DNA of 64,000 bases from a candidate division CPR3 bacterium GWF2_35_18 (GTDB lineage: Bacteria > Patescibacteriota > CPR3 > GWF2-35-18), in NCBI GenBank assembly GCA_001771135.1, contig MESW01000008.1, positions 87,630 through 151,629 of the forward strand, given 5' to 3'. Shown here piece by piece: positions 283 through 56,149 of the stretch (within the stretch, counting starts at the first letter, position 1; each line of letters starts with the position of its first letter). Under the pieces are notes generated by a model, which worked only from the letters and a program-made list of their open reading frames with translations, did no database searches and had not been told where the DNA came from. The position numbers and the translations under genes are program-made.

Positions 283-807
283 ATGAAGAAATTTTTAAAG
301 AGCCGTGAAGGTTTTACCTTAATCGAACTTTTAGTTGTCATTGCGATTATTGGTATCTTAGCCGCTGTAGTTGTGCTCGCGATCAACCCAGTAGCTATGA
401 TGCAAAAAGGTCGTGATTCCAATCGTAAATCAGACTTGGCTACTCTCTCAAAAGCAATTGATATTTATATGACTCAAGGGGCGACAGCTGTTCCTGGTGG
501 TGCTAATGTAAATCAAACTTCTCAGGGTATGACTAATTGTTGTAGTGGAACAGTGTCTACATGTACTGGTCCTACAACCTCTACAACCGGAGGATGGATA
601 ATTCCATTCGCTGTTTCTTGTGGAGTTGACCTTTCACCATATATCGCCAAAATTCCTATAGATCCAAATAATACTGCGACCTTAAGATATCATTATGATA
701 CTAATGCAACAGGAGATCGTTATTGTCTTGAGGCTGATATGGAACATGCTGATAGCGGACCGAGTTACAAAGTAGGAAGTGATTTAACGGGATGTGCTAC
801 ATACTAA
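283..807 (+). CDS. Type IV pilin / pseudopilin (prepilin-type N-terminal cleavage/methylation domain)
   Basis: N-terminus MKKFLKSREG|FTLIELLVVIAIIGILAAVV is a class III signal peptide with Glu at +5. GGAGG RBS at 266-270. Confidence 0.8.
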   Translation: MKKFLKSREGFTLIELLVVIAIIGILAAVVVLAINPVAMMQKGRDSNRKSDLATLSKAIDIYMTQGATAVPGGANVNQTSQGMTNCCSGTVSTCTGPTTSTTGGWIIPFAVSCGVDLSPYIAKIPIDPNNTATLRYHYDTNATGDRYCLEADMEHADSGPSYKVGSDLTGCATY

Positions 808-954
808 AGATTAATAGATGACGTAAATTGCATGCATTTACTAGAAAGAGGGGTTCTCATGAAACCCCTCTTTTGTATTTTTATTGACACCTTAATTCTT
901 CTCCCCTACAATGAATATCTAGATAATTCGATTGAAATGTCTGGAGGTTATAAC

Positions 955-1590
955 ATGCTCAAACTGCCAAAATCTATAAGTAACCCACTTGGTTTTACCC
1001 TGGTTGAATTACTAATTGTTATAACTATTATTGGAATTCTAGCTGGGGTGGTTACTCTGAATGTTACAAGTACCATTCCAACCTCTCGTGATGGTCGTCG
1101 CATAGCAGATATTAAAGCCTTAGAGGGTGCTTCGGAGCAATATTTTTCCGATAATAAAGATTATGTTCGTGGAAATACTTGTTATAATGATACCGATCCT
1201 TATTGTAAAGAGAATAGTCAATCAAATTACGGTGTTCCCTTTCTCAATACCCTTTTGACTTCGGGTTATATCAAATCGGATACCAAAGATCCTCTTAATG
1301 ATGGAACGTATGCGTATTGGTATGGTACTCCTTACGCTCCCAATCCTCCTGACGAATACATTCTTTTTGCTAGATTAGAGAGAAAAACTTCTGGAGAAAA
1401 TATTTATCAGCTTTATAATACTTCAGGAGCAGCTGTTAGTCCGGCTGTTTATTATTACGCTGTTTTTTCTGATTACAACTATTGGTACAATAATTTTCGG
1501 GATAACTCTTCTGCAACGTCTTGTACGCATGCAGGAGAATGGGCACATATACTTGTTGGAACAGCCGGTTGTTTACATAAAACATGGTAA
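955..1590 (+). CDS. Prepilin-type pilin-like protein
   Basis: Internal start MLKLPKSISNPLG|FTLVELLIVITIIGILAGV with GGAGG about 10 nt upstream. The track ORF from 832 carries an implausible leader. Exact start uncertain. Confidence 0.7.
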   Translation: MLKLPKSISNPLGFTLVELLIVITIIGILAGVVTLNVTSTIPTSRDGRRIADIKALEGASEQYFSDNKDYVRGNTCYNDTDPYCKENSQSNYGVPFLNTLLTSGYIKSDTKDPLNDGTYAYWYGTPYAPNPPDEYILFARLERKTSGENIYQLYNTSGAAVSPAVYYYAVFSDYNYWYNNFRDNSSATSCTHAGEWAHILVGTAGCLHKTW

Positions 1591-2507
1591 TTATCTTTTT
1601 TCTTTTTATTCTAGGGATTTCGATTGGTTCTTTTCTGGATGTCATTATTTCCAGAGTTTATCTTGATGTTTCGCCTAAATTGTCTAAAGATATTATCTCT
1701 TCTCGATCGGCATGCGCTTCTTGTAAGTATACTTTAAATTTTTGGGATCTTATTCCTCTACTCTCTTTTTTATTTCTGCGGGGAAAATGTCGTTACTGCG
1801 GGGCAAAAATTCCCTTCCGTTGTTTTTTGATGGAACTTTTTACAGGTATTTTGTTTGCTTTATATGGAATATTTGTTTTAAAAGGGTTTTCCCCATCAGC
1901 TTTACAAAACTGGATGCTCATTTTGTACTCTCTTATCGTAATTAGTTGCTTGATTATAATTTTCCAAGTAGATCTGCATAAATACATTATCCCAAATCCT
2001 ATCATTTTTTCTTTAATTGGTTTAGGTTTATTACTAGAACCAATTTGGGGATTGTTAAATTTAAAACACCAAATGATTCCACTCAATCATTTTTTATTTG
2101 ATATTTACTGGTTAATAAAAAGTTTATTAACCAATTTTGGGATAGAAATGTCTTTATCATATTCGCAACTACCGGTAATTTCTCCTTTTTTGAATCCGAT
2201 ATTCAGTGCTTTTTTTCTGGGATTATTCTTTTATTTAATCGTTTTTTTGACACGTGGAAAAGGAATGGGGATGGGAGATGTAAAACTTGCTTTCTTTATG
2301 GGGCTTTTTTTAGGTTGGCCGGAGAGTATTTTAGCACTATACCTTGCTTTTGTCTCTGGAGCTATTGTATCATTGATAATGGTATTAATAAAAAAGAAAA
2401 AGCTAAAGCAAAAAATTCCTTTTGGTCCATTTTTGCTCTTTGGTTTTTTTTGCACTTGGTTCTGGAATGCTGAAATTATATCTATTTTTGCAAGAATTGC
2501 TCATTAA
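1584..2507 (+). CDS. pilD: Prepilin peptidase (A24 family, PilD-like)
   Basis: Polytopic membrane protein. N-terminal CASC...CRYC zinc-binding motif typical of prepilin peptidases. GMGMGDVKL matches the catalytic GGDVKL region. Confidence 0.85.
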   Translation: MVIIFFLFILGISIGSFLDVIISRVYLDVSPKLSKDIISSRSACASCKYTLNFWDLIPLLSFLFLRGKCRYCGAKIPFRCFLMELFTGILFALYGIFVLKGFSPSALQNWMLILYSLIVISCLIIIFQVDLHKYIIPNPIIFSLIGLGLLLEPIWGLLNLKHQMIPLNHFLFDIYWLIKSLLTNFGIEMSLSYSQLPVISPFLNPIFSAFFLGLFFYLIVFLTRGKGMGMGDVKLAFFMGLFLGWPESILALYLAFVSGAIVSLIMVLIKKKKLKQKIPFGPFLLFGFFCTWFWNAEIISIFARIAH

Positions 2508-2529
2508 GTAAAAAGTTTTAAACAAAAAA

Positions 2530-3123
2530 ATGCCCAAGAATTTTTCGTGTAAATATTTTATTTCTTCCGCTGGTTTTACCTTGGTTGAATTATTGGTTGT
2601 GATGGCGATCATTTCAATCGTAACTATTATATCATTTCCTTCTTTCTCAACTTTTTCTCGTCAGCAAATATTGCAATCAGAAGCGGAAAAAATGGCTTCT
2701 CGGATAAAATTGGCTCAATCAAATGCCAGGTCTGGAAATCAGGGAGAAGATGAAACTGAAGAAGTGCAAGGGTTTATGATTGACTTTATAAACGTTGATT
2801 CCACTAATAAGTATTATCTCAAAAAGCATCGTAACGATCTAACAAATCCCTATAGCTATGTGGTGACAGAAGATGAATATACGCTAGATCAAAGTATTAC
2901 GAATATTACTTTTGAGGTTGGAGGAACTGAAGTTACAACTAAGGTATTTTATTTTCAATCTTCTCGCGGATATCTTTCATGTCTAACTGCTGTTCCTGTA
3001 AACGGGAATGATCAAGCTGAATGTGTTGTGTCTCAATTCAAAATTACTTTATTAAATTCCCAAGGAGAGGCTAAATATGTCTATATTGAAAGAGGAGGAG
3101 CTGTTTATGCAAGCGATTCTTAA
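2530..3123 (+). CDS. Pseudopilin / minor pilin (prepilin-type)
   Basis: ...ISSAG|FTLVELLVVMAIISIV N-terminal motif. Confidence 0.7.
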   Translation: MPKNFSCKYFISSAGFTLVELLVVMAIISIVTIISFPSFSTFSRQQILQSEAEKMASRIKLAQSNARSGNQGEDETEEVQGFMIDFINVDSTNKYYLKKHRNDLTNPYSYVVTEDEYTLDQSITNITFEVGGTEVTTKVFYFQSSRGYLSCLTAVPVNGNDQAECVVSQFKITLLNSQGEAKYVYIERGGAVYASDS

Positions 3124-3679
3124 AAAAATTCAAAAAGAACAGTCCGGAATGTCAATTATTGAGATTCTTGCGGCCGTAACATTTTCAATAGTAACTTTAG
3201 GAGCTTTGATAACCTTGGGTATTGTAACTTCTCGATCTTCGGACGCAGCAAGAAAAAGATCCCAAGCGGTTGAATTCGCAAAACAGGGAGTTGAAGCTGT
3301 CAGAGCTATTCGTGATAATGTTTCTGAGTTTCAAGGTCAAGAGTTTGCGGTTTGTGGAGAAAGCTGTTCTCCAGCCTGTGCCGGTTGGGATTGGGTATTG
3401 ATAAACGCCTGTCCTTGGAGTAATGGAACTTCGAATATGACTTTCTTTTTAGGTAGTAGTAGTGATAAGTGGAATCTACAATATGTGAATGATGGTGGAG
3501 ACGATTTGCATACCAGCTATCAGATTCCTGCAGATACTAATTTCTATCGGAAAGTTATTGTTGTTGAAGGACCTAGTGCTGATGGAAGTGATAAAGAAAT
3601 CGAGGTGCGTATCTCTTGGAAAGTGAGAGAGCAAGTTTTTACAGTTTCGGAAAGAATTCTTCTTACTGATTGGAGATAA
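3107..3679 (+). CDS. Pseudopilin / minor pilin (prepilin-type)
   Basis: MQAILKKIQKEQSG|MSIIEILAAVTFSIV with Glu +5. AGAGGAGGAG RBS lies 6 nt upstream of the ATG at 3107. Overlaps the previous gene. Confidence 0.65.
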   Translation: MQAILKKIQKEQSGMSIIEILAAVTFSIVTLGALITLGIVTSRSSDAARKRSQAVEFAKQGVEAVRAIRDNVSEFQGQEFAVCGESCSPACAGWDWVLINACPWSNGTSNMTFFLGSSSDKWNLQYVNDGGDDLHTSYQIPADTNFYRKVIVVEGPSADGSDKEIEVRISWKVREQVFTVSERILLTDWR

Positions 3680-3689
3680 TATTTAAATT

Positions 3690-4253
3690 ATGAATTATAA
3701 ATTTAGTATTACGAAAAATGAACAAGGTTTTACATTGGTTGAATTACTTGTTAGTCTAGTTATTTTTAGTATTGTGATGGGTCTTGGAAGTACGGCGTTG
3801 CTTTCGATTATGCAAAGTAATAATAAAGCAAAGTTGATTAACCGTTTGCGTACTGATGGTAGTCGCGTGATTGAAGAGATTGAAAGAGAAATTAAAGTTG
3901 CAGATGAGGTTCAGGCTTTAACTTCATATAACCTTGATTACCGAAAAAACGGTAATGAATATTATCGTTACAGCATCATTGATAATTCGAGTACTGATAA
4001 CAATAATTCAATCGTAAAAACACAATGTACTGGTTTGGGAATAGGATGTACAACAAGTTTATATACCTTAACTCCTACTGATAATCAAAATGGTTTGAAC
4101 GTGGCTCTCCCTCCAAGCTCTAGTTTTACTTATTATGACTATGGTGAAGTGAAAATAATCTTTACGTTTGAACAACCAGTGGGTTTGCCGGATAGACAAG
4201 AATATCAAGGAAGTATTACTTTAAATAGTAGTGTTACCTTACGAGATTATTAA
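3690..4253 (+). CDS. Pseudopilin / minor pilin (prepilin-type)
   Basis: MNYKFSITKNEQG|FTLVELLVSLVIFSIV. Confidence 0.7.
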   Translation: MNYKFSITKNEQGFTLVELLVSLVIFSIVMGLGSTALLSIMQSNNKAKLINRLRTDGSRVIEEIEREIKVADEVQALTSYNLDYRKNGNEYYRYSIIDNSSTDNNNSIVKTQCTGLGIGCTTSLYTLTPTDNQNGLNVALPPSSSFTYYDYGEVKIIFTFEQPVGLPDRQEYQGSITLNSSVTLRDY

Positions 4254-4270
4254 TATAGTAAGATAACAAA

Positions 4271-4301
4271 ATTGTTATACTCGAATTAACCTATTTTGCA
4301 A
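4271..4301 (-). promoter_or_regulatory. Promoter-like element in antisense orientation within the pilus locus
   Basis: Minus strand TTTGCA-17nt-TATAAC. 29 of 33 nt identical to the rpsP promoter element at 14890-14920, including the spacer. Confidence 0.35.
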
Positions 4302-4404
4302 ATTGAAATGACAGTAATTCGGATATAACTACCTGCGTAGGCTCAACTACTTTCATTTTTAAATTCAAGGAAGTTGGGTATATAATTATTTCAAGGAGTA
4401 GTAT

Positions 4405-5346
4405 ATGTTTCAATTCACCAAAAATGAACGAGCCCATTTGTCCCTCAAAGAAGAACAAGGTCAAGCTCTTGTCCTTGTGATTCTGATTATGTTAGTAGCT
4501 TTGACTGTTGGTGTTTCTGTTTCGTCTCAAGCTTTGATAGGTTCCAAAGAAGCTGTCTCTGAAGAACAGTCAGCTCAAGCATACGCCGTTGCCGAATCAG
4601 GAGCAGAGATTGCGTTGAAGCACTTAAAAACTTGTACTGAAGGAGTAGATTGTCTGACAGCTTCACCAGTTACTGGAAGCATTGGAGGTTCTACTTATAC
4701 CTATACTATTTCTTCGGCTTCGCTTTTGGCTTCGAATATTTATGAAACTAGACTTCAAAAAGATGAGGTTGTTCAGATTGATCTTAGTAATATTGCGGGT
4801 CTTACCAGCTCCAATAACGATGTTAAAATATATTTTTGGAGTGATGATTCTGATAGAGGTGTAAATGCAGATACTTCAAGTAATACATGTAGCCTTCCTG
4901 ATATTCCTGATGCGGCGATAGAATTTATCTATTTAGCTTATGATACTGGTTCCAATCCTTCTTATTTTGTTCGAGAGAAACAAGTTTATGATAGTTGCAC
5001 TGTTAGGCCTACTTCGAACAATTTTTCCGCTAGTGTGACAGGAGGAGTTATTGGTGGATATGATTATGACTTTTATGCTAAAAAAAGCGCTTTAGAAGAT
5101 TATTCTTTCAAAATGAATACAGATGATGAACAACGATTACTCAGGATCCGATCTTGGTACAACAATACTTGGATAGCTGTCGTTCTACATGATGTAAGTA
5201 TTCAGTTTCCGAATCAAGGTTATGAAATCGTATCTTCTGGAACAACGGGTGAGAATAAGCGTACAGTAAAGGTCACAAAGTCGAATCCTTATTTACCGGC
5301 AATCTTTGATTATGTTTTATTTTCCGGTGGAGATTTGCAAAAGTAA
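4405..5346 (+). CDS. PilX-like minor pilin / pilus assembly protein (N-terminal hydrophobic helix, no Glu+5)
   Basis: N-terminus ...EEQGQALVLVILIMLVALTVGVSV resembles the PilX_N type. AGGAG RBS. Position after the pilins. Confidence 0.5.
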   Translation: MFQFTKNERAHLSLKEEQGQALVLVILIMLVALTVGVSVSSQALIGSKEAVSEEQSAQAYAVAESGAEIALKHLKTCTEGVDCLTASPVTGSIGGSTYTYTISSASLLASNIYETRLQKDEVVQIDLSNIAGLTSSNNDVKIYFWSDDSDRGVNADTSSNTCSLPDIPDAAIEFIYLAYDTGSNPSYFVREKQVYDSCTVRPTSNNFSASVTGGVIGGYDYDFYAKKSALEDYSFKMNTDDEQRLLRIRSWYNNTWIAVVLHDVSIQFPNQGYEIVSSGTTGENKRTVKVTKSNPYLPAIFDYVLFSGGDLQK

Positions 5347-5440
5347 GAAAAAATTGCCAGGGATATTAAAAATTGTTAAGCTGATACTTATTAAAATATA
5401 TTTTGAAATGATATCTAAAAACCATCTGAAGGAGCTATCT

Positions 5441-7540
5441 ATGAGCCGTAAAATTTTTCTCACAGCCTTGGCTGTTTTATTTTTGATTATTGTATCCCCT
5501 CCCTCGACTCAAGCGGCTTTACAATCTATTCACTATCAAGGGAGATTGAGAGTAATAAATGGAGCTCTTGTTAATGGTGTCACGAGATATTTCAAAGTAT
5601 CCTACTATAATTCTCAAGTAGGGGGAACACTCTTTTGGGCAGATGGTACATGTTATAGTTCAGCTGTCTCATATGGCAATTTCGAACTTAATTTAAGTAC
5701 CGCTCCTGCTTCTTTGGGTTATTTTGATGCGACTAATTATTGGATGACGTTACAGATGTATTCAAATAGTAGCTGTACAACACTGTTAGATACTTTTCCT
5801 CGAGAGCAGATATCAGCTTCCCCTATTGCGATAACAAGTTCATATTTATCGGGAATTAGTGGTAGCGGAACAAATATTTTAGGTGATGCCAGAATTGGAT
5901 ATGTGACTAATGATAATGGAAGTACGGTAGGTTATGGTAATAGACTCTATTTTTCTGGTGGAGATGATTGGGCATCTTGGGATAGCGATAATTCAGATTC
6001 TATATATATAAGTAGGTATAACTCAGGTAGTGATTATACTGAATTAAGAGTTAATATTGGTGATAACGCCAGTCAAGCAGCGGATAAATTTGTTGTAGGA
6101 ACGACTGATCCTTCTTGGACTCCACGTTTAACAGCGCAGATGAATGGTTATGTTGGGATTAATAAGGGTAGTCCAGAGTATCCTTTAGATGTAGCTGGTT
6201 CTGGAAGTAATTATCTTGCAAGATTTCAAAGTCCTGATGGATATTTATTGTTAGGTCCTGCGAATAGTGGATGGGCTCATTTAGCAACGGATAGAGCACG
6301 TTTTTATATGAATACTGGTCTTACCGTAGATACCGGGAATATTGGTAGTTATAACGAAAATTTAAGTTTGCAAACCTCGGGAACAACTCGTTTTACTATT
6401 TTGAATAGTAATGGAAATATAGGTATTGACGATACGACTCCATCTCATAAACTTGATGTTAATGGTGATATTGCAATGAAAAGCGATATGCGAATGAATA
6501 CTAGTTTTTCCGTCGATAACGGAACATTAAGCATTTTTAATGATAGAATTGATGATGCTTGGGATTATAACAATTTTAGGATTTGTGCTAATTCTAATTG
6601 TAGTTATGGATTTCAGATAGAAACTTCTCCTGCAGGTAATCCTACTCTTAGTGCCATTGGACAAGATTTTATAACTATTAACGATGCTTTGTGGCTAACT
6701 ACGGCGCAAACTAGAGTTATAAATCTGGGTGAATCTATTATATCTGATCTTTGGGGAGCCGATGGAACAGATGATTTTGTCATCCATGGTCCTGGATGGG
6801 ATGGTTCTTCAAATAATAACTATGGTACAGTCGTGGGAGGGCATTTTTATTCTTATGGTGGTATGGATATTGGTTCCGGAAACGGCAGATTAGCAGGACA
6901 AGGACAACTATACGTACAAGGATTATCAACTTTTAATGGAGATATTGTTGTTGGTGAATATAATAGTGGTGTTGGTATGTTAACTTTGTATGGAGATTAT
7001 GATGGTCAATATTCCGCTGCGGGGATTGATATGCATTTTGGTGACGGTGATCTTTGGCATCTGGGTGCGCGTGGTTCTTTAGATGCAGATCCAAGTAAAG
7101 CCATTAAGTTCTGGTTCTATGATGATCCAGATGCTCCTGATCCAGATAGTTGGTCAAATCCTCTTACAATAAATCCACCAGGAAATACTTATGTAGTTAA
7201 AGTAAATGGAGCGATGTATGCAACTTCATATGCTTGTGCTTCGGATGAAAATTTAAAGAAAGATATCGAAGGTATTGATGGCAAAACAGCAATAGAAAAG
7301 TTTAAACAGATAAATGGAGTGAACTTCAAATGGAGAGAAGGAGATGAATCATTACAGCTTGGAGTGATTGCACAGGATGTAGAGAAAGTCTTTCCAGAAG
7401 CAGTAAAAACAGATGAAAATACCGGGTTCAAATCAGTTAATTATGATAACTTAGTAGCTCCTTTAATCGAAGCGGTGAAAGAACAGCAAAGAGAGATTGA
7501 AGCATTACAAAGAGAAATTGAAGATCTAAAAAATAATTAA
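5441..7540 (+). CDS. Secreted fibre-like protein with C-terminal peptidase S74 intramolecular-chaperone (auto-cleaving) domain
   Basis: GAAGGAG RBS and ATG at 5441. Signal peptide MSRKIFLTALAVLFLIIVSPPSTQA. The last about 99 aa, SDENLKKDIEGI...NGVNFKW...GVIAQDVEKVFPEAV...VNYDNLVAPLIEAVKE...coiled coil, match the endosialidase/tail-spike chaperone domain. Confidence 0.7.
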   Translation: MSRKIFLTALAVLFLIIVSPPSTQAALQSIHYQGRLRVINGALVNGVTRYFKVSYYNSQVGGTLFWADGTCYSSAVSYGNFELNLSTAPASLGYFDATNYWMTLQMYSNSSCTTLLDTFPREQISASPIAITSSYLSGISGSGTNILGDARIGYVTNDNGSTVGYGNRLYFSGGDDWASWDSDNSDSIYISRYNSGSDYTELRVNIGDNASQAADKFVVGTTDPSWTPRLTAQMNGYVGINKGSPEYPLDVAGSGSNYLARFQSPDGYLLLGPANSGWAHLATDRARFYMNTGLTVDTGNIGSYNENLSLQTSGTTRFTILNSNGNIGIDDTTPSHKLDVNGDIAMKSDMRMNTSFSVDNGTLSIFNDRIDDAWDYNNFRICANSNCSYGFQIETSPAGNPTLSAIGQDFITINDALWLTTAQTRVINLGESIISDLWGADGTDDFVIHGPGWDGSSNNNYGTVVGGHFYSYGGMDIGSGNGRLAGQGQLYVQGLSTFNGDIVVGEYNSGVGMLTLYGDYDGQYSAAGIDMHFGDGDLWHLGARGSLDADPSKAIKFWFYDDPDAPDPDSWSNPLTINPPGNTYVVKVNGAMYATSYACASDENLKKDIEGIDGKTAIEKFKQINGVNFKWREGDESLQLGVIAQDVEKVFPEAVKTDENTGFKSVNYDNLVAPLIEAVKEQQREIEALQREIEDLKNN

Positions 7541-7560: not shown

Positions 7561-8238
7561 ATGCATAATAGAGTATTTATTATCTTAAGTATTTTGTTTT
7601 TATTATTAATTACAAGTTTAAATATTGGACCTGTTTTTGCCGCTTGTGAAACAAGTGGTTGTTGTCCTGCAGGCTCGCAAAATTCATGTTGTGGTGGTGG
7701 TGATGGTGGTGGTGGTTATACCTATGATTGTACTGCATGTGGTACAACTCCTAGTCCTACGGGTAAATGTTGTATGGAATGGCCAGATGATAGTTGTGGT
7801 TGTCCTTCAGCAACTCATTGTGGCGGTGGCGGGTGCGGTTATGGAGATACATGTGGTTGTACTATTGGAGCCTGTAGTACTGGGGATGATGATGATTGTA
7901 ATCAACCATGTGGTGGGTGTTTTCCTTGCGATGCTTGTGCAACGATTGGAAGTATCCCTGAAGAAAATCCACTGATGTTAAGTTTTACAGATGCAGAATA
8001 TGGAAAGACTACAGAAGAAGAGATAACTTCTTGTCAAAATAGTTTGGTTGGAACAGTAAATGCATCTTCTTCAGATAAAGAGGTTGTATTAAGCAGTCTG
8101 AATACTCCAATTTGGAAATTGGCAATATTCGATACGTATGATTGGATAGACAATAATAAGACTTTACTTTTAGGCGGTATAAGTGGTGTTTTAATTCTGA
8201 TTGCTGTTTCGTTAAAATTAATTTTTAGAAATCATTAA
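7561..8238 (+). CDS. Cys/Gly-rich secreted protein with C-terminal membrane anchor
   Basis: Signal peptide, then about 100 aa with about 26 Cys (CC, CxxC, GGGG runs), then a C-terminal hydrophobic helix LLLGGISGVLILIAVSL. Confidence 0.6.
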   Translation: MHNRVFIILSILFLLLITSLNIGPVFAACETSGCCPAGSQNSCCGGGDGGGGYTYDCTACGTTPSPTGKCCMEWPDDSCGCPSATHCGGGGCGYGDTCGCTIGACSTGDDDDCNQPCGGCFPCDACATIGSIPEENPLMLSFTDAEYGKTTEEEITSCQNSLVGTVNASSSDKEVVLSSLNTPIWKLAIFDTYDWIDNNKTLLLGGISGVLILIAVSLKLIFRNH

Positions 8239-8239
8239 T

Positions 8240-9511
8240 ATGAAAAAGTATCTGCTTTTTTTATCTCTAATTATTATCGGAGTTCTTTCAATCGTATTTT
8301 TTAAATATTATTCCGATGAGATTAATGAAAAAAATAAAACATTAACGACAAGAAATAGCCTTATTTCCCAAAAAAAGGAAAGTTTAAAAACTGAGGATTT
8401 AGATATTTTACTAGACGGTAGCATACATAGCTCTGGTGAATGGTTACTTCGTAATCAGAAGGCAGATGGTTCTTTCAACTATGAACGTGATGTGACTACG
8501 GGTGAAATTACAGATAGCGAGAATAATATAGTGCGTCAATCAGGAACTTTATACGGAGTGGCAAAACTTTATAACTATACTAAAGACACTAGATACAAAG
8601 AAACACTTTTAAAAGGTTTTAATTATTTTGATACACTAGCCGAAACTAAAGATCTAGAGGGAACGACAGTTAGATACTTTAAAGAAGGCGGTAGTGTTCA
8701 AGCAAATACCGTAGCTCTACAGATTTTGGCGTATTTGGAACTTGCGAAAGCTGATCGCGATTTACCCTCTGACTTAAGTACAAAATTAGAAGAAATGGTT
8801 AATTTCATTAAATTATCTCAGCAAAGTAATGGTGCTTTTCAGAACTATTTTTTAAATAAGATCAAGATTGAGTGTTGGGAATCAGATTATAACAATGGAG
8901 AATCCTTTTTTGCTTTAACTAGTTACTATAAATATTCATCCGATGAAACTTTAAGACCTCTTTTAGAAATATCCGCAAATTACTTTTTAGAAAAGTACAA
9001 AGACTTTAATATTGAATTTTACTCTTGGGGGATGATGGGTTTTTCGCAGCTTTATGAAATTACTGGAAATACTAACTACCGAGATTATATTTATCAAAAT
9101 ACTGATAATATGATAAATGTAGCTGGGACGAACTTTCTCGGGATTGGGGCGTATTTAAAATCGACAAATGAAGCAAATCCATTACCAGATTATAGTCAAA
9201 TAGTTCAGACAGAGGGACTGCTATATGTTTATAAAATAGCGGTAATGGATAATCCAGAAAAAGCTTCGACTTATAAGAATGCGATTATAAATAGTCTAGC
9301 GTTTCATGCAGTCTTTCAGTCCCCTTGGGAAGAAACTCTTCCAAACAGAATATATGATGTTGTCAAAGGTGGTTTTTGTAACCGTTCGGACTGTTCTATC
9401 CAAAGGATTGATATGGTTCATCATGCTTTAAGTGCATTTATAGATGCTCTTAATTTTATCGATAATAGTAACCTGCAACTTTCTGTTGCAAATAGTATAA
9501 ATACAAAATAA
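8240..9511 (+). CDS. Membrane-anchored protein with alpha/alpha-toroid (prenyltransferase/squalene-oxidase-like) repeats
   Basis: N-terminal TM helix. Repeated Q..(D/N)G(S/A)F motifs (QKADGSFNYE, QQSNGAFQNYF) typical of alpha-toroid repeat proteins. No LanC-type Cys/His motifs. Confidence 0.45.
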   Translation: MKKYLLFLSLIIIGVLSIVFFKYYSDEINEKNKTLTTRNSLISQKKESLKTEDLDILLDGSIHSSGEWLLRNQKADGSFNYERDVTTGEITDSENNIVRQSGTLYGVAKLYNYTKDTRYKETLLKGFNYFDTLAETKDLEGTTVRYFKEGGSVQANTVALQILAYLELAKADRDLPSDLSTKLEEMVNFIKLSQQSNGAFQNYFLNKIKIECWESDYNNGESFFALTSYYKYSSDETLRPLLEISANYFLEKYKDFNIEFYSWGMMGFSQLYEITGNTNYRDYIYQNTDNMINVAGTNFLGIGAYLKSTNEANPLPDYSQIVQTEGLLYVYKIAVMDNPEKASTYKNAIINSLAFHAVFQSPWEETLPNRIYDVVKGGFCNRSDCSIQRIDMVHHALSAFIDALNFIDNSNLQLSVANSINTK

Positions 9512-9513
9512 AG

Positions 9514-11487
9514 ATGTTCAGGCGACTTAAAGAATCAAAATGGAATAGATTTATAATCTTATACCTGTTTGCAATTATTTGTTTGATATCCCCTACTCTT
9601 TCTTATGCAAAATTGACTGGGACTACCTATGAGATTGAGGACGAACTTTTTGATAATGGAGGCGGAATGTCAACTGGAACTGCCTATCAATTAGATAATT
9701 CTAGTATTAGCCAATGGGTTCAAGGGAAGTTTACTGGCGGAAGTTATGATGCTCTTGTAGGTCACTGTTACAAAGATGTTACTTTACCTGTTTGTTCTGG
9801 AATGAGTTTTTATTTACCTGATCCAAATAATATTTTGCTGGTGAGAGTGAATTGGGGGGCGACAGATCAAAATAACAACGAGTTTGATACTGGAGTGTAT
9901 GGATATGATGTTGATTATCGTATCGATGGTGGAGCGTGGACTAACCTTTATCCAACAGTTAATAATGCCTATGGCGCAAATACTTCTGCAGATCTGGTTA
10001 TTAACCCCACCAGTACTTATACTTTTAGAGTTTGGGCTTTAGATAATGTGGGAAACGTGAACGTTCTTTGTGGGATGGATAGTGTTCAATTTGGAGCTTT
10101 GTGGTTTCAGGGAGTTGATGGATATGTGCGTGCAGAAAATAATCTCGTCTGTGATATCTCTTCTTTTTCAACCGATGGATATGTTGACTTTGATAGTTCT
10201 GGAGCAGGAGGGTTAAAAGGTGGTATTCCTTCTGCCGGAGGGAATATTGACCAAGGTTATGGAGATTTTTCTTCGCGTGGTAATAACGAAGGATGGAATG
10301 TTTCTCCAAACTATCTAATAGCTGAAACTAATCATTACAACTATGCTTGGTTTTACAGTAATTTGAATGGACAAGAAGCAGCGTTAGTTCCAGATGGTGG
10401 AGATGGGACTGTTAACGCCACTGAGCTAATTAATGCGATAAACAGTACCGTAACTACCAGAATTTTTGCCAGCGATACAGATGCTTTTATCTGGGGTCGT
10501 AGAGGAAGTAGTTATAATAGTTGTCGAAATACGAGTGGCGGTTACAACTCAAGCTCAACAACAAGCAGACTTGGTCAGTACGATGAAACATCGGGGCCAA
10601 TTGCTACTTATAATTGTTATAGATCCTATTTTGAGTTTGATACAGGTAATATTCCTGATGATGCCAGTGTTCTTGACGTGAAATTGGGACTAAAAGTAGC
10701 TACGGATCTTTCGACAGTAGACTTCGATGTACGTATTAATAAATTTGATTGGAATTCTCCTATGTCTGCAGCAAATAGAGAAGCAAATTATGATGCAGCA
10801 GGTACTGTTTTTGATCAAGTTTGGCGTAATACTTCTGGGATAAGCACGGGAGTTTATTATAGTAATACGACATCTCTAGATACAAATTGGATTAATAAAA
10901 CGGGAATAACTTCCTATCAGTTGCGTTCTTCAAGAGATGTTTCAGCGATCATTCCTACTACTGCAGAATTTATTGACCTGATGACGGCAGAAAGTACAGG
11001 GACTACGAACGACCCTTATCTAGATGTTACCTATACAAATACTGGAATTTATTATGTCGATGGAGATTTAAATATTAATGGAAGTATCAATGCCCTTCAA
11101 AATAAAAATGTAATTATTTTTGTAAATGGAGATATTACGTTTAGTTCAAACCCAGTTGTGCACAGTTCCAGTAATTTATCTTTTATTTCAAACGGAGATG
11201 TGACTATTAATAACGCTGTAACGCAGATTGATAATTCTTTGATTTTTACAGATGGAAATTTGGTAACCGCTTCTGCCTCTACAAACGCAAATCAACTTCT
11301 TGTTGATGGAAGTTTAATCAGCAAAGGAATATTAAATTTAAGCCGGAAACGAGATATTTCTATTCAGGAAAACTTAAGTTCTCCTACAGAAAAAGTGACC
11401 TTAAATCCGGATGCATATTTTACATTAGGTCTTAATGAAAATCTGTTGGGAATACCTAGAGTTATATGGGAAGAAGTGACTGAATAA
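9514..11487 (+). CDS. Large secreted protein; C-terminal region with beta-helix-like repeats
   Basis: Signal peptide ...ICLISPTLSYA. Repetitive NGD(I/V)T..N motifs near the C-terminus. Translationally coupled to the preceding gene. Confidence 0.5.
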   Translation: MFRRLKESKWNRFIILYLFAIICLISPTLSYAKLTGTTYEIEDELFDNGGGMSTGTAYQLDNSSISQWVQGKFTGGSYDALVGHCYKDVTLPVCSGMSFYLPDPNNILLVRVNWGATDQNNNEFDTGVYGYDVDYRIDGGAWTNLYPTVNNAYGANTSADLVINPTSTYTFRVWALDNVGNVNVLCGMDSVQFGALWFQGVDGYVRAENNLVCDISSFSTDGYVDFDSSGAGGLKGGIPSAGGNIDQGYGDFSSRGNNEGWNVSPNYLIAETNHYNYAWFYSNLNGQEAALVPDGGDGTVNATELINAINSTVTTRIFASDTDAFIWGRRGSSYNSCRNTSGGYNSSSTTSRLGQYDETSGPIATYNCYRSYFEFDTGNIPDDASVLDVKLGLKVATDLSTVDFDVRINKFDWNSPMSAANREANYDAAGTVFDQVWRNTSGISTGVYYSNTTSLDTNWINKTGITSYQLRSSRDVSAIIPTTAEFIDLMTAESTGTTNDPYLDVTYTNTGIYYVDGDLNINGSINALQNKNVIIFVNGDITFSSNPVVHSSSNLSFISNGDVTINNAVTQIDNSLIFTDGNLVTASASTNANQLLVDGSLISKGILNLSRKRDISIQENLSSPTEKVTLNPDAYFTLGLNENLLGIPRVIWEEVTE

Positions 11488-11572
11488 ATGAAGACAGTGG
11501 TTGACAGTAAATACCAGCTGCTTTACACTGGAATAATTATAGTTTTGATAATAATTTTTCGTAAAGGATAAA

Positions 11573-12613
11573 ATGGCAGATAATTTTTTAGGTCTTGATA
11601 TCGGTTCCAATAATATTAAAATTGTGGAGTTAAAAAGAACAAGTAACGGTTTATTGCTTCAAGCCTATGGGAGTATCGAAACTCCTAAGGGAGCCTCAAA
11701 ATCAGAGTCTCAAGCAGATCTGGAAGAGATTGCTACTGCTACCAGAAAATTGATGAAGGAAATACATGTAACTACAAATAAGGTAGTAGTTGGTCTTCCT
11801 GAATCAGTTGTTTTTACCAGAGTAGTAGAATTACCAGTAATGAGTGATCAAGAATTAAAAACGGCTATGCGTTGGGAAGCAGAACAATTTATTCCAATTC
11901 CTCTAAAAGATGTGAAATATGATTACGAGGTAGTAAAAAGACCTACCAAAGAGTCTAAAGACTCTAAAGATAAAATGAGTGTTTTTTTTGTAGCCGTTCC
12001 GAATACAACGATTGAGAGATATTTAAAGATTATGAAAGTTGCAGCTTTAGAGCCGGTGGCTTTTGAAACAGAACTTTTAGCCTTGGTTCGTTCTTTGTCT
12101 CCAGAAGGAAACGCTTCCCCATCAACTTTAATTATTAATATTGGAGCGGAAACAACAGATTTGTGTATTGTTTCTAAGGGAAATATTGCCTTTACACGTA
12201 GTATTTCTTCCGGTGGAAACGCTCTTTCAAAAGCAATCGCACAAGAGCTAGGTTTTGAGATGACACAGGCAGAAGAGTATAAAAAGAGTTACGGATTACT
12301 TGAAAATGAGCTTGAAGGTAAGATCCAAGAGATTATTAAGCCAATTTTTGATGTAATTGTTGGAGAGGTTGAGAGAGGTTTACTTTTTTATCAAACACAT
12401 CATCCTACTGACTCAGTTAAAAGAATTATTCTTTGTGGTGGGACTGCAAAACTTCCGGGAATTGTGATGTATTTAGCCGGTGCTTTAGACTTAGAAGTAC
12501 AACTTGGCGATCCATGGAATAACGTCAAAAAAGGATCACCAGATTTAGCCAAGAAACTCGAAGAACATGCCCCTTTGTACGCGGTGGCGGTTGGATTGGC
12601 AATGAGAGTTTAG
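11573..12613 (+). CDS. pilM: Type IV pilus assembly ATPase-like protein PilM
   Basis: N-terminus FLGLDIGSNNIKIVEL, actin-like fold signature of PilM. Size matches. Confidence 0.85.
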   Translation: MADNFLGLDIGSNNIKIVELKRTSNGLLLQAYGSIETPKGASKSESQADLEEIATATRKLMKEIHVTTNKVVVGLPESVVFTRVVELPVMSDQELKTAMRWEAEQFIPIPLKDVKYDYEVVKRPTKESKDSKDKMSVFFVAVPNTTIERYLKIMKVAALEPVAFETELLALVRSLSPEGNASPSTLIINIGAETTDLCIVSKGNIAFTRSISSGGNALSKAIAQELGFEMTQAEEYKKSYGLLENELEGKIQEIIKPIFDVIVGEVERGLLFYQTHHPTDSVKRIILCGGTAKLPGIVMYLAGALDLEVQLGDPWNNVKKGSPDLAKKLEEHAPLYAVAVGLAMRV

Positions 12614-12691
12614 GATACTTTCTAACTCCTGTTGCAAAAAAATAGAAAATGAGCATATAATTTAAATATACCTTAAAAATAGGAGTCTTTA

Positions 12692-13291
12692 ATGGCTGTC
12701 AATATCAACCTTCTCCCAGATATAAAGTCTGATGAGAAGAAAAAGAAAAAACTGCTCCAAACGATAAACATCGTTTCTTTGGCAGTCACAGGATTTATCT
12801 TACTCATTGCAATTGGGGTTTTTGTTATTAACCAGATTTTGAACTCAAATCTTAGTGAGATCAATGAAAGTATTTTGGCTCAGGAAAAAATCGTTGATGA
12901 GAATTTAGAGGCAGAAACGGTCTTAGTTGGTCTACAGAGTCGTTTGAGTTCCATTGACTCTATCCTAGTTACTCGAAAAAAATACTCTGTTTTCCTGACC
13001 AATTTTACCAGTTACGTTCCACAATCAATAATAATTAATGATATGACTGTTGGTTCTGATGGTAGTGTTTTAATAAACGGAGAAGCTCCTTCATATGAGA
13101 AGTTGGCGGGATTTGTTTTAGTGCTTTCTGGGGAGAATACTCTCGAGTCTACAGAAGAAGCTACCGTTGACGTTTCTTCAAATTCGATTTATAGCAATGT
13201 TTCTTTGAACTCGGTTTCACGTGGTGATGACGGTGGGAGTGTTCGATTTACAATCAGCTTTACAGCTAAGGAAGGAGCTTTTCATGAATAA
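12692..13291 (+). CDS. pilN: Type IV pilus assembly protein PilN
   Basis: N-terminal INLLP motif followed by a single TM helix. Follows pilM. Confidence 0.75.
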   Translation: MAVNINLLPDIKSDEKKKKKLLQTINIVSLAVTGFILLIAIGVFVINQILNSNLSEINESILAQEKIVDENLEAETVLVGLQSRLSSIDSILVTRKKYSVFLTNFTSYVPQSIIINDMTVGSDGSVLINGEAPSYEKLAGFVLVLSGENTLESTEEATVDVSSNSIYSNVSLNSVSRGDDGGSVRFTISFTAKEGAFHE

Positions 13292-13973
13292 TATACTTTC
13301 AAAAGTTAAAGAGTATCTTATCCTGATTATTTGTGGTTTCATTTCAGTTATTTCGTTAGTCATCATTATTCCAGGAATTCAAAGTATCTTTTCCACTAGA
13401 GAAGAGATGACTGCTAAGGAAAGAACTAGAGATCTTTACGATCAGAAAATTGATATTCTTTCAAGCCAAAATTTACCTGGGATCAAAAAAGATCTGATTA
13501 ATAGCTTATTAGCTTTGCCATCTTCTTATGATTCTCCAAGTCTTTTGAATGCTTTGGAAAAAATAGCCACGGCTTCTGGAGTTTCCATTTCAGGTCTACA
13601 ATTTTCTCAACCTTCTACTGCTGGAGGTGGTGAAGCCGTTACGACTGCGACCAAAAACACTTTTGCTTTATCTACAAACTCTGATTATGCTCATATAATC
13701 GCCTTATTTAGGAATTTTGAAAATACTCTACCATTATTTACAATTGAAAATATCGGGTTGCGTTCTGGAGGAGAAGGATCTGCTGATCTTTCTCTTTCTT
13801 TTGGAATTTCTTCTTATTATCAATCTTTACCAACTACTCTTGGTGATAAAACAACTCCGGTAGCTGATCTTGCAGTTTCTCAAAAAGAACTTCTTACGGC
13901 TTTGGAAGGATATAGTAACTATCCTTTAGTTCCTGATACATCCGGAGTCGGGAAAACGAATCCTTTTAAATAA
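13284..13973 (+). CDS. pilO: Type IV pilus assembly protein PilO-like
   Basis: AAGGAAGGAG RBS. Start overlaps the pilN stop. Single N-terminal TM. Position after pilN. Confidence 0.55.
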   Translation: MNNILSKVKEYLILIICGFISVISLVIIIPGIQSIFSTREEMTAKERTRDLYDQKIDILSSQNLPGIKKDLINSLLALPSSYDSPSLLNALEKIATASGVSISGLQFSQPSTAGGGEAVTTATKNTFALSTNSDYAHIIALFRNFENTLPLFTIENIGLRSGGEGSADLSLSFGISSYYQSLPTTLGDKTTPVADLAVSQKELLTALEGYSNYPLVPDTSGVGKTNPFK

Positions 13974-36868: not shown

Positions 36869-37948
36869 TCAGCTTACTTCTGGGATAAACTGTTCCAGAA
36901 TCTGAGCCATTTTTTCTAGAGAAGAGATAGTTACATATTCATTAGTTGCATGAGCGTTTGCAGTATTTGGTTCCGTCAGAATTACTGGAATTTTTTTGGA
37001 AGTAAAGAATCTGGCATCAGATGCTGCTGGATCACGAGTGATTGAAACTTTTCTTTTCAAAACTTTCTCAGCAATTTCATGATAAATTTTGAGATATTGA
37101 TTATTTTTATCGGTAAAAAATGGATTACCATCTACAGTTTCCTTAGGTTTTATTCCAGTTAAATTTGTAATTTTATTAAAAATTTCTTTTTTTGTGTATT
37201 TGGCTGGATAACGGATATCACATTCAGCTGATGCGTAATCAGCGATTTTGTTACTAGCCTCTCCTCCATAGATTTTTCCGATATTAAAAGAGATGCACCA
37301 ATCTTCTAAGCTTTGTGGGTTTTTAAAAGTTTTACGTAGTTTTATACAGGCTAACATTAATTTATCAATAGCGCTTTCTCCGAGGTATGGTCTAGAAGCA
37401 TGACAAGCGACTCCTTTGGTTTCAAGTGTAAAACTCAAAACTCCTTTTTCTTCAACGATAATATCGAAGTTATGTCCTCCGTCTGGAATAAAGGTAATAT
37501 CGGTTTTGTATTTTTCTTTCTCAAGGAGATATTTGACGCCGTCAAATCCGCCTATTTCTTCATCAGTTGTGAGCATTAGGGCAAAAGAAAGTTTGGGATT
37601 TTGTTGATAAAGTTTTTTCATGATGACCATCATGGTAGCGCAAGCCCCTTTCATATCACCAGCGCCTCGAGCGATCAGCTTATCCCCTTCAATTTTTGGT
37701 TTAAATTGATCCTTCTCTGCTTCGATGACATCAAGATGTCCGTTTAGAATTAGTTTTGGATGTTTTGTTTCTTTAGTTAAGATCATTACGGAGGGTTTAT
37801 CGTTGGAAACGTATTTTTTGATGATCATTTTGGTGTCTTTGAAGTAATCGGCAGCAACATCAACAACTTCTTTGAGTCTTTCAGGTTTACTTCTAATTGA
37901 TTCAATCTGAATAAGTTTTTTAGTTAATTCTAAAATTTCTTTTTTCAT
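36869..37948 (-). CDS. M20-family metallopeptidase (DapE/ArgE-like deacylase)
   Basis: LNGHLDVIEAE and ARGAGDMKGA metal-binding motifs of the M20 family. Confidence 0.75.
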   Translation of the reverse strand: MKKEILELTKKLIQIESIRSKPERLKEVVDVAADYFKDTKMIIKKYVSNDKPSVMILTKETKHPKLILNGHLDVIEAEKDQFKPKIEGDKLIARGAGDMKGACATMMVIMKKLYQQNPKLSFALMLTTDEEIGGFDGVKYLLEKEKYKTDITFIPDGGHNFDIIVEEKGVLSFTLETKGVACHASRPYLGESAIDKLMLACIKLRKTFKNPQSLEDWCISFNIGKIYGGEASNKIADYASAECDIRYPAKYTKKEIFNKITNLTGIKPKETVDGNPFFTDKNNQYLKIYHEIAEKVLKRKVSITRDPAASDARFFTSKKIPVILTEPNTANAHATNEYVTISSLEKMAQILEQFIPEVS

Positions 37949-38837
37949 AATTTTCTCCTTTAATTATTAGACATGCTCCAAGGCATGCTCCATGATCTAT
38001 GTTGGAAATTACGATATCTTTAAAATGGAAAAATTTAAAGGTATTTTTTTTATATTTTTCAATAGCTGGCGTCAGAAATTTTTCAGCTGATTTTTTCAAA
38101 GATCCATTAATAATAATTCTTTCTGGATTATAAAAATATGATACTATTTGAAGAAAATTATATAAATGCTCTGTAAAAATCAAAATCGCCCTTTGTGCAT
38201 CTGGGTCATCATTTTTACTTTTAAAAATTTGTTTGGCATCTTTATTTTGTCTGCTAATTTCTTGGTATATTTTTGCCAAACCTTTTCCAGATAAAAAACT
38301 ATCAATAATTGTTTCTTTGTCATGTAGCTCTGGAACTAAATATTTCATTTGGGATATTTCTCCCAGGTTATTTGAATAACCTCCAATAAGTCGTCCGTGT
38401 GAATAAAAAGATAATCTAATTCCTGTTCCTAAATTTATAAGTACAAAGCTTTCAGTTTTTTTCCCTAGTCCAAAAACTGCTTCTGCTTTTGCCATTGCGT
38501 TTACATCATTTTCTAAGATGATCTTTCTTCTAAATTTCTTTTCCCATTTTTTTACGAGAGGATAATTAACATATCCTCCCAAAAGAGAACTGTAGGTGAT
38601 TTTTCCCTTATTCACTACACAATTGAAACTAATGCCGATAACTTTTACTGAATCTTCAATTCTTTTTTGAATTAATTCTTCTAATATTTCTAAAAATTGT
38701 AGACTATTATGCTTAAATTGATCTGTTGAGATCTTCTCACTATCGATTAGATTATATCTATTATCAAAAGAACAGATCTCGATTTTTGTCCCACCAATGT
38801 CAATTCCAAGAAAATAGGGTTTATTTAATTTTTTCAT
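37920..38837 (-). CDS. ROK/BadF-type sugar kinase-like ATPase
   Basis: YFLGIDIGGTKIEI N-terminal ASKHA motif. Confidence 0.6.
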   Translation of the reverse strand: MKKLNKPYFLGIDIGGTKIEICSFDNRYNLIDSEKISTDQFKHNSLQFLEILEELIQKRIEDSVKVIGISFNCVVNKGKITYSSLLGGYVNYPLVKKWEKKFRRKIILENDVNAMAKAEAVFGLGKKTESFVLINLGTGIRLSFYSHGRLIGGYSNNLGEISQMKYLVPELHDKETIIDSFLSGKGLAKIYQEISRQNKDAKQIFKSKNDDPDAQRAILIFTEHLYNFLQIVSYFYNPERIIINGSLKKSAEKFLTPAIEKYKKNTFKFFHFKDIVISNIDHGACLGACLIIKGENYEKRNFRIN

Positions 38838-55199: not shown

Positions 55200-56149
55200 C
55201 TTATTGATTTTCTACGATTAGTATTTTCATGATCAAATTTTACCCAACGATCAATAGACCACTCCTTTACCATTTCTACTCGATTTGCAGCCATTTTACA
55301 ATAGCTTCTTGAAAGATCGCATCCCTTCCATCTTCTCTTCAATTGCTCTGCTGTCGTAATTGTTGTCCCAGATCCCAAAAATGGGTCGAGAACCAAATCA
55401 CCTTCATGAGATGAGGCTAAAATGATCTTTCTTAATAACTCTTCTGGCTTTTGGGTTGGGTGAGATGTTCTTTCTTCAGCACCATTACTTATCGTTGGGA
55501 TTTCCAAAACATCACGTGGTTTTGCCCCTAAAGGATTTGGACTCCATAATTTCCCTCCGTTTTTCTCCTTTCCATATTGGCTCGTTACCGCCTGTGGATG
55601 AACGGGATATTTTAAAGTGTGATCACCATAAGGTATACGGACAAAGTCGACATTGAAAATAAAATCCTTACTCTTTCTCAAATGTAAGATGCTCTCATGT
55701 GATCTTCCCCAATCATTTCCTAAGTTGGCTTTATTCTTATAATGCCATATTATCCACCGACAACCTTTAAAAAACTTCATGGCAGGATGTTTTAAATCAG
55801 CTAAAATTTCGGAAAATCCACAAATGTAAAGAGATCCATTCTTCTTTAATATTCGAGACGATTCCTCAATCCACCTCAGAGACCATTCAATATACTTTTC
55901 TTGAGATTCAAAATTATCCCACTCTGCCTTCTTAATATTATAAGGGGGATCAGCGAATATAAGGTCAACTGACTCAGAATCTAGATCCTTAAGCCAGGTT
56001 TCTGATTTACCTAACCAGATTTCACCATGAGGATGTGTGTAGAATAAAATTGGTTTGCTTTGATTCGATAAATCATTATCAATTCTCTGGAATCTTCCTT
56101 TCCTTAATTCATCTCCGAACAAAGTTAGTGATTTTATATTTTTTTTCAT
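55196..56149 (-). CDS. DNA methyltransferase, beta-class (N6-adenine or N4-cytosine)
   Basis: Motif IV IFADPPYNI precedes motif I DLVLDPFLGSGTT, the beta-class order. Confidence 0.85.
   Translation of the reverse strand: MKKNIKSLTLFGDELRKGRFQRIDNDLSNQSKPILFYTHPHGEIWLGKSETWLKDLDSESVDLIFADPPYNIKKAEWDNFESQEKYIEWSLRWIEESSRILKKNGSLYICGFSEILADLKHPAMKFFKGCRWIIWHYKNKANLGNDWGRSHESILHLRKSKDFIFNVDFVRIPYGDHTLKYPVHPQAVTSQYGKEKNGGKLWSPNPLGAKPRDVLEIPTISNGAEERTSHPTQKPEELLRKIILASSHEGDLVLDPFLGSGTTITTAEQLKRRWKGCDLSRSYCKMAANRVEMVKEWSIDRWVKFDHENTNRRKSIR

Follow-up and report, generated by a model that had tools for sequence, protein, structure and literature searches.

A candidate S74-terminated, MAT-type secreted fibre from a CPR3 bacterium, encoded in its type IV pilus operon

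Results

Gene and product

The gene described here is located at positions 5441 to 7540 on the forward strand of a 64,000-nucleotide stretch of contig MESW01000008.1, which is called the window in the following. It codes for a 699-residue precursor whose exact source is the candidate division CPR3 bacterium GWF2_35_18, a member of the Patescibacteria from groundwater. The protein is deposited as OGB62768.1 / KKP69960.1 (UniRef A0A0G0E3R3) and already bears the UniRef name 'Peptidase S74 domain-containing protein'. It is very probably a secreted fibre of the mosaic adhesive trimer (MAT) type which ends in an S74 intramolecular chaperone domain, and its gene lies among those of a type IV pilus operon. 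In order, the protein consists of a signal peptide, a recurring N-domain, a mosaic shaft, a private tip, and the S74 domain; the coordinates of all features are collected in Table 1.

Mechanical calling of the open reading frame (ORF) places its start at a TTG codon (5306), overlapping the end of the preceding gene. Because a strong ribosome-binding site can be read at 5428-5434 and the NCBI annotation also gives a protein of 699 residues, the ATG at 5441 is most likely the true start. The N-terminus resembles a Sec-type signal peptide and, by inspection, contains neither a lipobox nor a prepilin motif. The Pfam family N_methyl matched the neighbouring pilins and not the fibre protein, in which only PF13884 was detected, and an NCBIfam search of the fibre protein gave no match. 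The signal peptide, together with a chromosomal, non-prophage context, bears out an earlier sequence-only reading of the same DNA in which the product had been described as a secreted bacterial protein.

The gene has a GC content of 0.370 and a third-codon-position GC content (GC3) of 0.214, the same as its neighbours, and is intact and near-identical across several independently assembled CPR3 metagenome-assembled genomes (MAGs) and metagenomes. Full-length coverage was obtained with one relative only, a twin of 98% identity (P0001) from the Joint Genome Institute, while the other homologues matched by modules. The sole difference between this variant and the window protein is a deletion of 13 residues, SGGDDWASWDSDN, in module A of the shaft. 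The remaining public variants show no differences over the length in common, which makes them too alike to place any diversification within the protein.

The S74 chaperone domain

The sequence-only reading had assigned positions 7241-7537 to a Peptidase S74 domain, and we confirmed that these bases encode an S74 chaperone domain with an intact catalytic dyad. Positions 7241-7540 translate to SDENLKKDIEGIDGKTAIEKFKQINGVNFKWREGDESLQLGVIAQDVEKVFPEAVKTDENTGFKSVNYDNLVAPLIEAVKEQQREIEALQREIEDLKNN*, which represents 99 residues followed by the stop codon at 7538-7540, and the coordinates, peptide, and motifs given in that reading are all present in the translation. PF13884 ('chaperone of endosialidase'), which has a gathering cutoff of 22 bits, matched the whole ORF with 61.1 bits (E=1.2e-16) and the 99 residues alone with 65.2 bits (E=6.5e-18), values far above those expected by chance. 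Profile positions 1 to 58 were all aligned and position 1 coincided with the Ser codon at 7241, the start previously proposed for the domain; the intact Ser-x4-Lys dyad and the modelled fold (see below) also support the assignment. The calculated mass of the C-terminal fragment, 11.26 kDa, likewise fits the earlier estimate of roughly 11 kDa.

Within the catalytic motif S-D-E-N-L-K, Ser601 is the predicted nucleophile and Lys606 the predicted general base, with Ala600-Ser601 as the putative scissile bond. In phmmer alignments, both residues were paired with their equivalents in gp37 of phage S16 (6f45), a tail fibre (8jov), and a T5-like L-shaped fibre (8hqz). With MyRF (7dc3), the aligned part begins just past the Ser. 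Among the related proteins fetched, 64 contain a near-complete S74 domain, 63 of them with S-x4-K and 47 with the full SDxxxK. The dyad of the family consists of Ser(i) and Lys(i+5), represented by S911/K916 in endoNF and S587/K592 in MyRF, and both residues are needed for cleavage (PMC8326128, PMC3742443); the SDxxxK motif has been defined for S74 fibres (PMC10769870). Lys587 of the window protein is located 14 residues before Ser601, a spacing equal to that between Arg897 and S911 of endoNF, although the residue is a Lys instead of an Arg; by this spacing, it may correspond to Arg897. Arg897 is a basic residue of the upstream stalk acting as oxyanion stabiliser, and such a residue is not universal according to the study on MyRF (PMC8326128).

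In an AlphaFold2 model of the full-length protein, the S74 domain reached predicted local distance difference test (pLDDT) values of 94-98. Comparison against the PDB by Foldseek identified MyRF's ICA (intramolecular chaperone auto-processing) domain as the best structural match (7dc3; E=1.8e-5, target TM 0.66), and also retrieved endoNF (3gw6) and T5 (4uw8). The MyRF ICA shares the Ser-Lys dyad mechanism but differs from the window protein in having no fibre or adhesin role. The domain ends in a long helix, which presumably forms a trimeric coiled coil nucleating the assembly; this role is taken from the structure paper on MyRF (PMC8326128).

The domain might also serve for folding and trimerisation only, with the chaperone remaining attached without cleavage, e.g., as a cap regulating the exposure of the tip. 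Such a function would be consistent with the absence of the Asp of SDxxxK in 17 of the 64 related S74-like domains and with the second role which the chaperone part of MyRF takes over after cleavage (PMC8326128). The window protein, however, contains both catalytic residues at canonical spacing within a fully intact SDxxxK motif, and self-cleavage occurs in all the proteins with this motif that have been tested (PMC8326128, PMC3742443, PMC10769870), which makes a permanently attached chaperone very unlikely.

N-domain, shaft, and tip

The domain immediately behind the signal peptide belongs to a recurring type, of which it is a diverged representative. Against a profile of six independent N-domains, which also directly follow signal peptides in fibres of the S74/PTL type, it scored 32.1 bits end to end, and the best of 2,000 shuffled sequences reached 7.3 bits. 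Searching with residues 27-143 by phmmer found only two of the 209 fibre proteins fetched, the twin and one weak match. The N-domain is presumed to be the cell-proximal anchor.

The shaft is composed of two modules. Module A is common to 37 and module B to 195 of the fetched proteins, and the S74 residues 601-699 found matches in 53 of them. The non-S74 part was also used for an exhaustive HMMER search, which retrieved 3,928 cluster representatives at E<=1e-3, nearly all of them via modules A and B. According to precomputed annotation, many relatives of module B carry PF26696 (PTL_trimer), and the twin P0001 carries PF13884 only; our literature search found nothing on PF26696/PTL_trimer, nor on S74 domains in Patescibacteria. 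Module B, modelled with pLDDT values of 75-95, is bounded by two capping-loop motifs, GYVGINKGSPEYPLDV and GNIGIDDTTPSHKLDV. A profile of 27 module B sequences matched the Bdellovibrio fibre proteins Bd2133 (6.7e-14), Bd3182 (1.1e-11, over the whole module), Bd1334 (4e-6), and Bd2439 (7e-3), and Foldseek with the fibre model recovered the same Bdellovibrio MAT fibre structures. When the non-S74 part was compared with the PDB sequences by phmmer, no match was obtained; matches came from the profile of module B alone.

The tip is rich in G, S, D, N, Y, and W and is largely confined to this lineage. It was found in four of the fetched proteins, in full in the 98% twin only and as a sub-segment common to P0194, P0176, and P0142, and it had no match among the PDB sequences. 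Word-indexed searches with the N-domain or the tip alone missed even the 98% twin and were replaced by phmmer and hidden Markov model searches. After cleavage, the tip would be exposed and presumably represents the receptor-binding end.

Comparison with the MAT fibres of Bdellovibrio

In Bdellovibrio bacteriovorus, 21 MAT fibres have been described by Caulton et al. 2024, all with a conserved domain, rich in beta structure and ~130 residues long, right after the signal peptide and 13 ending in an S74 domain with SDxxxK (PMC10769870). They form a trimeric beta-helix with capping loops of the type V-G-G/N-pi-x-x-P-x-x-x-L, their tips have been exchanged in the course of evolution and bind epitopes of the prey, and self-cleavage was demonstrated for Bd3182, where it is abolished in the S782A variant (PMC10769870).

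By its sequence, the window fibre appears to share each MAT feature that was compared, i.e., the signal peptide, the capping-loop shaft, and the S74 domain with SDxxxK. Like Bd3182 and its paralogues, it is a cellular, non-phage protein with a predicted Sec signal peptide which is directly followed by a further domain; its beta-helix module lies between V-G-x...P...L capping loops and is homologous by profile (~1e-11 to 1e-14), and it ends in an S74 domain containing SDENLK. Moreover, the organism, like Bdellovibrio, lives on other cells. Because the shaft module is homologous to those of trimeric MAT fibres with demonstrated S74 self-cleavage, we infer that the window protein would also form a trimeric, self-cleaving fibre.

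The fibre also differs from the known MAT proteins in several respects. It is shorter (699 vs. ~1,000 residues), the spacing of its capping loops is one residue longer than in the published consensus, it is present as a single copy in the 64-kb window instead of a 21-member family, and its gene is surrounded by those of a type IV pilus operon. Moreover, it comes from a genome of the Candidate Phyla Radiation (CPR), i.e., the Patescibacteria. MAT-like proteins have been listed for Oligoflexia, the Planctomycetes-Verrucomicrobia-Chlamydiae (PVC) group, Micavibrio, the Fibrobacteres-Chlorobi-Bacteroidetes (FCB) group, and Omnitrophica, with none for the CPR (PMC10769870). The earlier reading of the sequence had missed both that a cellular class of such fibres is already described and that the gene lies inside a CPR type IV pilus operon.

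Relation to phages

Because of its S74 domain, the protein had previously been suggested to reflect an exchange with receptor-binding proteins of phages. Our searches support such an exchange for the chaperone end and not for the whole fibre. In total, 1,275 phage records matched the fibre protein; the matches listed cover the chaperone plus ~50-70 preceding residues only, none spans more than roughly one quarter of the query, with identities ranging from 29 to 47%. Similarly, 33 PHROG families matched, mostly of tail-fibre proteins, and the large majority of them align only by their C-terminal ends. Modules A and B were found in 1 of 50,697 phage records, and a scan of viral contigs revealed no relative of the fibre.

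These data also bear on the question of whether the gene is a phage remnant, i.e., a tail-fibre gene that was left behind by a prophage or acquired recently and has no cellular function. Its C-terminal ~120-170 residues do match tail-fibre genes in the phage records and PHROG families mentioned above, and a homologue (P0063) is encoded on a phage-like contig together with further S74 proteins, three in total. However, no phage genes were found nearby, both flanks consisting of pilus and housekeeping genes, and the window as a whole represents an ordinary chromosome with genes for RecG, TyrRS, PBP1, PheRS, ThrRS, trigger factor, PurA, and PurB. The protein carries a Sec signal peptide, which tail fibres assembled in the cytoplasm lack, its GC and GC3 values equal those of its neighbours, the intact gene recurs near-identically in independent CPR3 MAGs and metagenomes, and the shaft modules are practically confined to non-phage records. 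We therefore give the phage remnant hardly any probability. A prophage or recent-transfer origin was rejected on the basis of the pilus and housekeeping context and the matching GC and GC3 values, and the protein is regarded as a cellular fibre and not as the product of a prophage gene.

In comparison with well-studied phage chaperones (endoNF of K1F, 3GW6; pb1 of T5, 4UW8; gp37 of S16, 6F45), the window protein shares the S74 domain, the Ser-x4-Lys dyad, the terminal helix, and a predicted cut just before the Ser that would release a fragment of ~11 kDa. In contrast to them, it possesses a signal peptide and is encoded in a chromosomal pilus operon instead of a virion module, and the similarity ends ~50-70 residues upstream of the predicted cleavage site.

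Association with the type IV pilus operon

The fibre gene is part of a same-strand array, with gaps of 94 nucleotides to the PilX/GspK-like gene upstream and 20 nucleotides to the next gene downstream (Table 1). No terminator adjoining the fibre gene was detected; our promoter and terminator scans performed at chance level and are informative only on the lack of a terminator beside this gene. Cultivated CPR episymbionts of the Saccharibacteria bind to their hosts by means of type IV pili, and further close-range adhesins have also been proposed for them (PMC9894109, PMC11623550). Because the gene is located in a pilus operon and pili mediate the host binding of CPR episymbionts, the fibre most likely represents an adhesin which binds to host cells or surfaces and is co-expressed with the pili.

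To assess how general this association is, we collected 26 PilM-anchored loci from genomes and 11 from metagenomes with flanks extending at most 10 kb to either side, as far as the contigs permitted. The genome scan did not return the window's own genome and yielded mostly distant Planctomycetota, leaving only one informative locus (L007), and about four of the 11 loci from the metagenome scan, which was based on PilM alignments, contained enough upstream DNA. Among those found, L007 is the closest pilus locus, with a PilM 43% identical to that of the window and the same synteny through to ribosomal protein S16, and its slot for the fibre gene is taken by two extra minor pilins. In L034 (PilM 51% identical), a PilX-like gene abuts the PilM gene. 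The contig carrying L007 (CAYTXH010000001.1) is titled 'uncultured Gammaproteobacteria bacterium', yet its PilMNO, trmD, and ribosomal protein S16 genes mirror the CPR3 window; the taxonomic label may be wrong.

Several results weigh against an adhesin that trimerises, cleaves itself, and works together with pili. An S74 domain was present in none of the 26 genome and none of the 11 metagenome PilM loci within the fetched flanks, and the closest pilus loci, i.e., L007, L034, and L033-L043, all lack an S74 gene. Conversely, pilus genes were found in none of nine contexts of fibre homologues, which consisted of paralogue arrays in Bacteroidota-like chromosomes, a phage-like contig, or sites beside RHS toxins. 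Because its position in the pilus operon is not conserved, the co-location could be a lineage-specific accident without functional coupling. In addition, the structure model represents a monomer only, with trimerisation and cleavage being predicted, and the N-domain, module A, and the tip were modelled at pLDDT <50, so the geometry of the fibre was left uninterpreted. The likeness to the MAT fibres was established for the signal peptide, the shaft, and the S74 domain. We conclude that, among the loci examined, the pilus association of the S74 fibre is not general and represents a lineage-specific insertion.

The contexts of the homologues showed further regularities. PTL_trimer/S74 fibre genes (L005 10001-20997, L044 559-14490, L045 10001-23339) often occur in arrays of 3-4 paralogues on Bacteroidota-like chromosomes near genes tagged with Por_Secre_tail for the type IX secretion system (T9SS). 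The three S74 proteins encoded on the phage-like contig each exceed 1,100 residues. In two independent metagenomic contigs (L003 12680-21620, L047 14291-19978), module-B fibre genes are located just upstream of genes for very large RHS-repeat proteins of the toxin type, which hints at a recurrent association of fibres with RHS proteins.

In classical operons with the layout fimU-pilVWXY1E, the gene for a pilY1-type adhesin follows those for the minor pilins. The fibre gene occupies the same slot directly behind the minor pilin and PilX/GspK-like genes, and the fibre could accordingly be a physical part of the pilus, i.e., a PilY1-like non-pilin adhesin docked by its N-domain on the minor-pilin tip complex or the filament. 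A signal peptide other than that of a prepilin is also present in PilY1 and in PilX1 and PilX2 of Saccharibacteria (PMC11623550). The authors of the MAT study presumed that the N-domain binds an unknown cell-surface element and raised a possible interplay with type IV pili (PMC10769870). As with PilY1/PilC and PilX1/PilX2, the gene follows minor pilins and codes for a large protein with a presumed adhesive role. In contrast to these proteins, the fibre, in which only PF13884 was detected, has no sequence or domain similarity to them, it is predicted to be trimeric instead of consisting of a beta-propeller or a lectin domain on a pilin, and it is not conserved across related pilus loci.

Because the closest related loci, L007 and L034, lack the fibre and contain minor pilins or nothing in its slot, it does not belong to the conserved pilus machine. 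The same N-domain also occurs in fibres whose contexts lack pilus genes, and it is not obvious how a fibre of three-fold symmetry would dock on the tip of a pilus. A protein with DUF7305/DNRLRE domains is encoded in the window (9514-11487, +) and recurs in the related CPR pilus loci L007 (8089-9905), L033 (8-193), and L035 (596-904); as a conserved, large pilus-associated protein, it is a more plausible candidate than the S74 fibre. A physical association of the fibre with the pilus is thus possible but unsupported, and we consider this explanation unlikely. If it were true, this CPR3 lineage would have recruited a phage-type, self-cleaving trimeric fibre, co-transcribed with the minor pilins, into its type IV pilus system, and the receptor-binding tip presented to the host by the retractile pilus would be phage-like and exchangeable. 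Such a fibre would represent a novel type of pilus adhesin and would establish the physical link between a MAT fibre and a type IV pilus on which the Bdellovibrio authors only speculated.

Table 1. Features of the fibre gene and the surrounding type IV pilus operon (positions in the window)
Feature	Position	Strand	Remarks
Ribosome-binding site GAAGGAG	5428-5434	+	6 nt upstream of ATG 5441; read off the sequence
Whole fibre gene	5441-7540	+	699-residue precursor; probable secreted MAT-like fibre with C-terminal S74 chaperone
Sec-type signal peptide MSRKIFLTALAVLFLIIVSPPSTQA	5441-5515	+	Likely cut after Ala25, before A; by inspection
N-domain	5522-5851	+	Residues 28-137; diverged member of a recurring post-signal-peptide domain
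Shaft module A	5870-6130	+	Residues 144-230
Deletion site of P0001	5954-5992	+	Residues 172-184
Shaft module B	6116-6478	+	Residues 226-346
Capping-loop motif GYVGINKGSPEYPLDV	6146-6193	+	Residues 236-251; first boundary of module B
Capping-loop motif GNIGIDDTTPSHKLDV	6413-6460	+	Residues 325-340; second boundary of module B
Lineage-specific tip	6479-7240	+	Residues 347-600
Peptidase_S74 intramolecular chaperone/auto-cleavage domain	7241-7537	+	Residues 601-699; PF13884
Catalytic motif S-D-E-N-L-K	7241-7258	+	Ser601 7241-7243; Lys606 7256-7258 (predicted roles)
Long C-terminal helix	7445-7534	+	Residues ~669-698 (model residues 643-672), pLDDT >=94
Upstream half of type IV pilus operon	283-5346	+	Pfam N_methyl, Peptidase_A24; weak NCBIfam GspK
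Major pilin	283-807	+	
Second pilin	832-1590	+	
Prepilin peptidase	1584-2507	+	Peptidase_A24
Three minor pilins	2530-4253	+	
PilX/GspK-like protein	4405-5346	+	Weak NCBIfam GspK match; directly upstream of fibre gene
Downstream half of operon	7561-13973	+	
Cys/Gly-rich membrane-anchored protein	7561-8238	+	225 residues; directly downstream of fibre gene
GH127-like protein	8240-9511	+	423 residues
DUF7305/DNRLRE protein	9514-11487	+	Directly upstream of PilM
PilM	11573-12613	+	
PilN	12692-13291	+	
PilO-like protein	13221-13973	+	

Other features of the operon and the window

The protein encoded directly behind the fibre has a signal peptide, a middle part extremely rich in Cys and Gly with runs of CC, GGGG, and CGC, and a C-terminal transmembrane helix. 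It matched no Pfam or NCBIfam family, and its gene has the lowest GC3 of the operon (0.168) and is kept beside the fibre gene in the twin contig L002; the protein might serve as the anchor of the fibre or as its partner. The following GH127-like protein contains an N-terminal transmembrane segment and gave a marginal match to the (alpha/alpha)6 family PF07944 (26 bits vs. a cutoff of 24.9). Together with the fibre gene, these two genes form a three-gene block which is absent from the related locus L007.

Right after the major pilin gene, we observed a strong terminator-like hairpin (844-874, +) with a 12-bp stem followed by a T-run. It falls within the mechanically called start of the second pilin ORF, whose true start is probably the Met before LKLPKSISNPLGFTLVELLIV, and it may act as an attenuator that keeps the level of the major pilin high relative to the products of the downstream genes.

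Two regions outside the operon are also of note. At 54246-59950 (-), a 1,262-residue protein without a Pfam match is encoded beside an N6/N4 DNA methylase (55196-56149) and an unannotated ORF of 317 residues; the region may represent a restriction-modification or other defence module. At 36869-39954 (-), a gene of the DIT1_PvcA family (38821-39954; isonitrile/dityrosine-type biosynthesis) adjoins genes of the ROK family and for an M20 peptidase; as a secondary-metabolism-like gene, it is unusual for a reduced CPR genome.

Discussion

Taken together, we consider it likely that the gene codes for a secreted, mosaic, trimer-forming fibre of the MAT type which serves as an adhesin and is co-expressed with pili. 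Its parts differ in certainty: the assignment as an S74-terminated, secreted MAT-type fibre is much the firmer one, and the chances that it works as an adhesin together with the pili are about even.

Trimerisation, cleavage, surface display, and adhesion are deduced from the characterised relatives, and their possible course may be outlined as follows. The precursor would be exported via the Sec system by its classical signal peptide, and three chains would be joined by their S74 chaperones (residues 601-699), with the terminal helices forming a coiled coil. The chaperone would then template the folding of the upstream beta-helical shaft. Once the shaft is folded, Ser601, activated by Lys606, would attack the Ala600-Ser601 bond and free the chaperone of 11 kDa. 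The mature fibre of ~62 kDa per chain (pI 4.3) would be left with its N-domain near the cell and the tip (residues 347-600) exposed for binding.

The protein type was already known from Bdellovibrio and the S74 annotation from UniRef; what is unusual is the lineage-specific place of the gene in a pilus operon. As a single-lineage case of a known protein type, the finding is of limited general significance, which would be different if a functional link to the pilus were demonstrated. For host recognition and attachment of the ultrasmall CPR/Patescibacteria episymbionts, type IV pili are the only well-supported factor, and additional adhesins acting at close range have been postulated. The fibre gene provides a concrete candidate for an adhesin and extends the class of MAT-like fibres to the CPR, and the tip would be the obvious place for host specificity.

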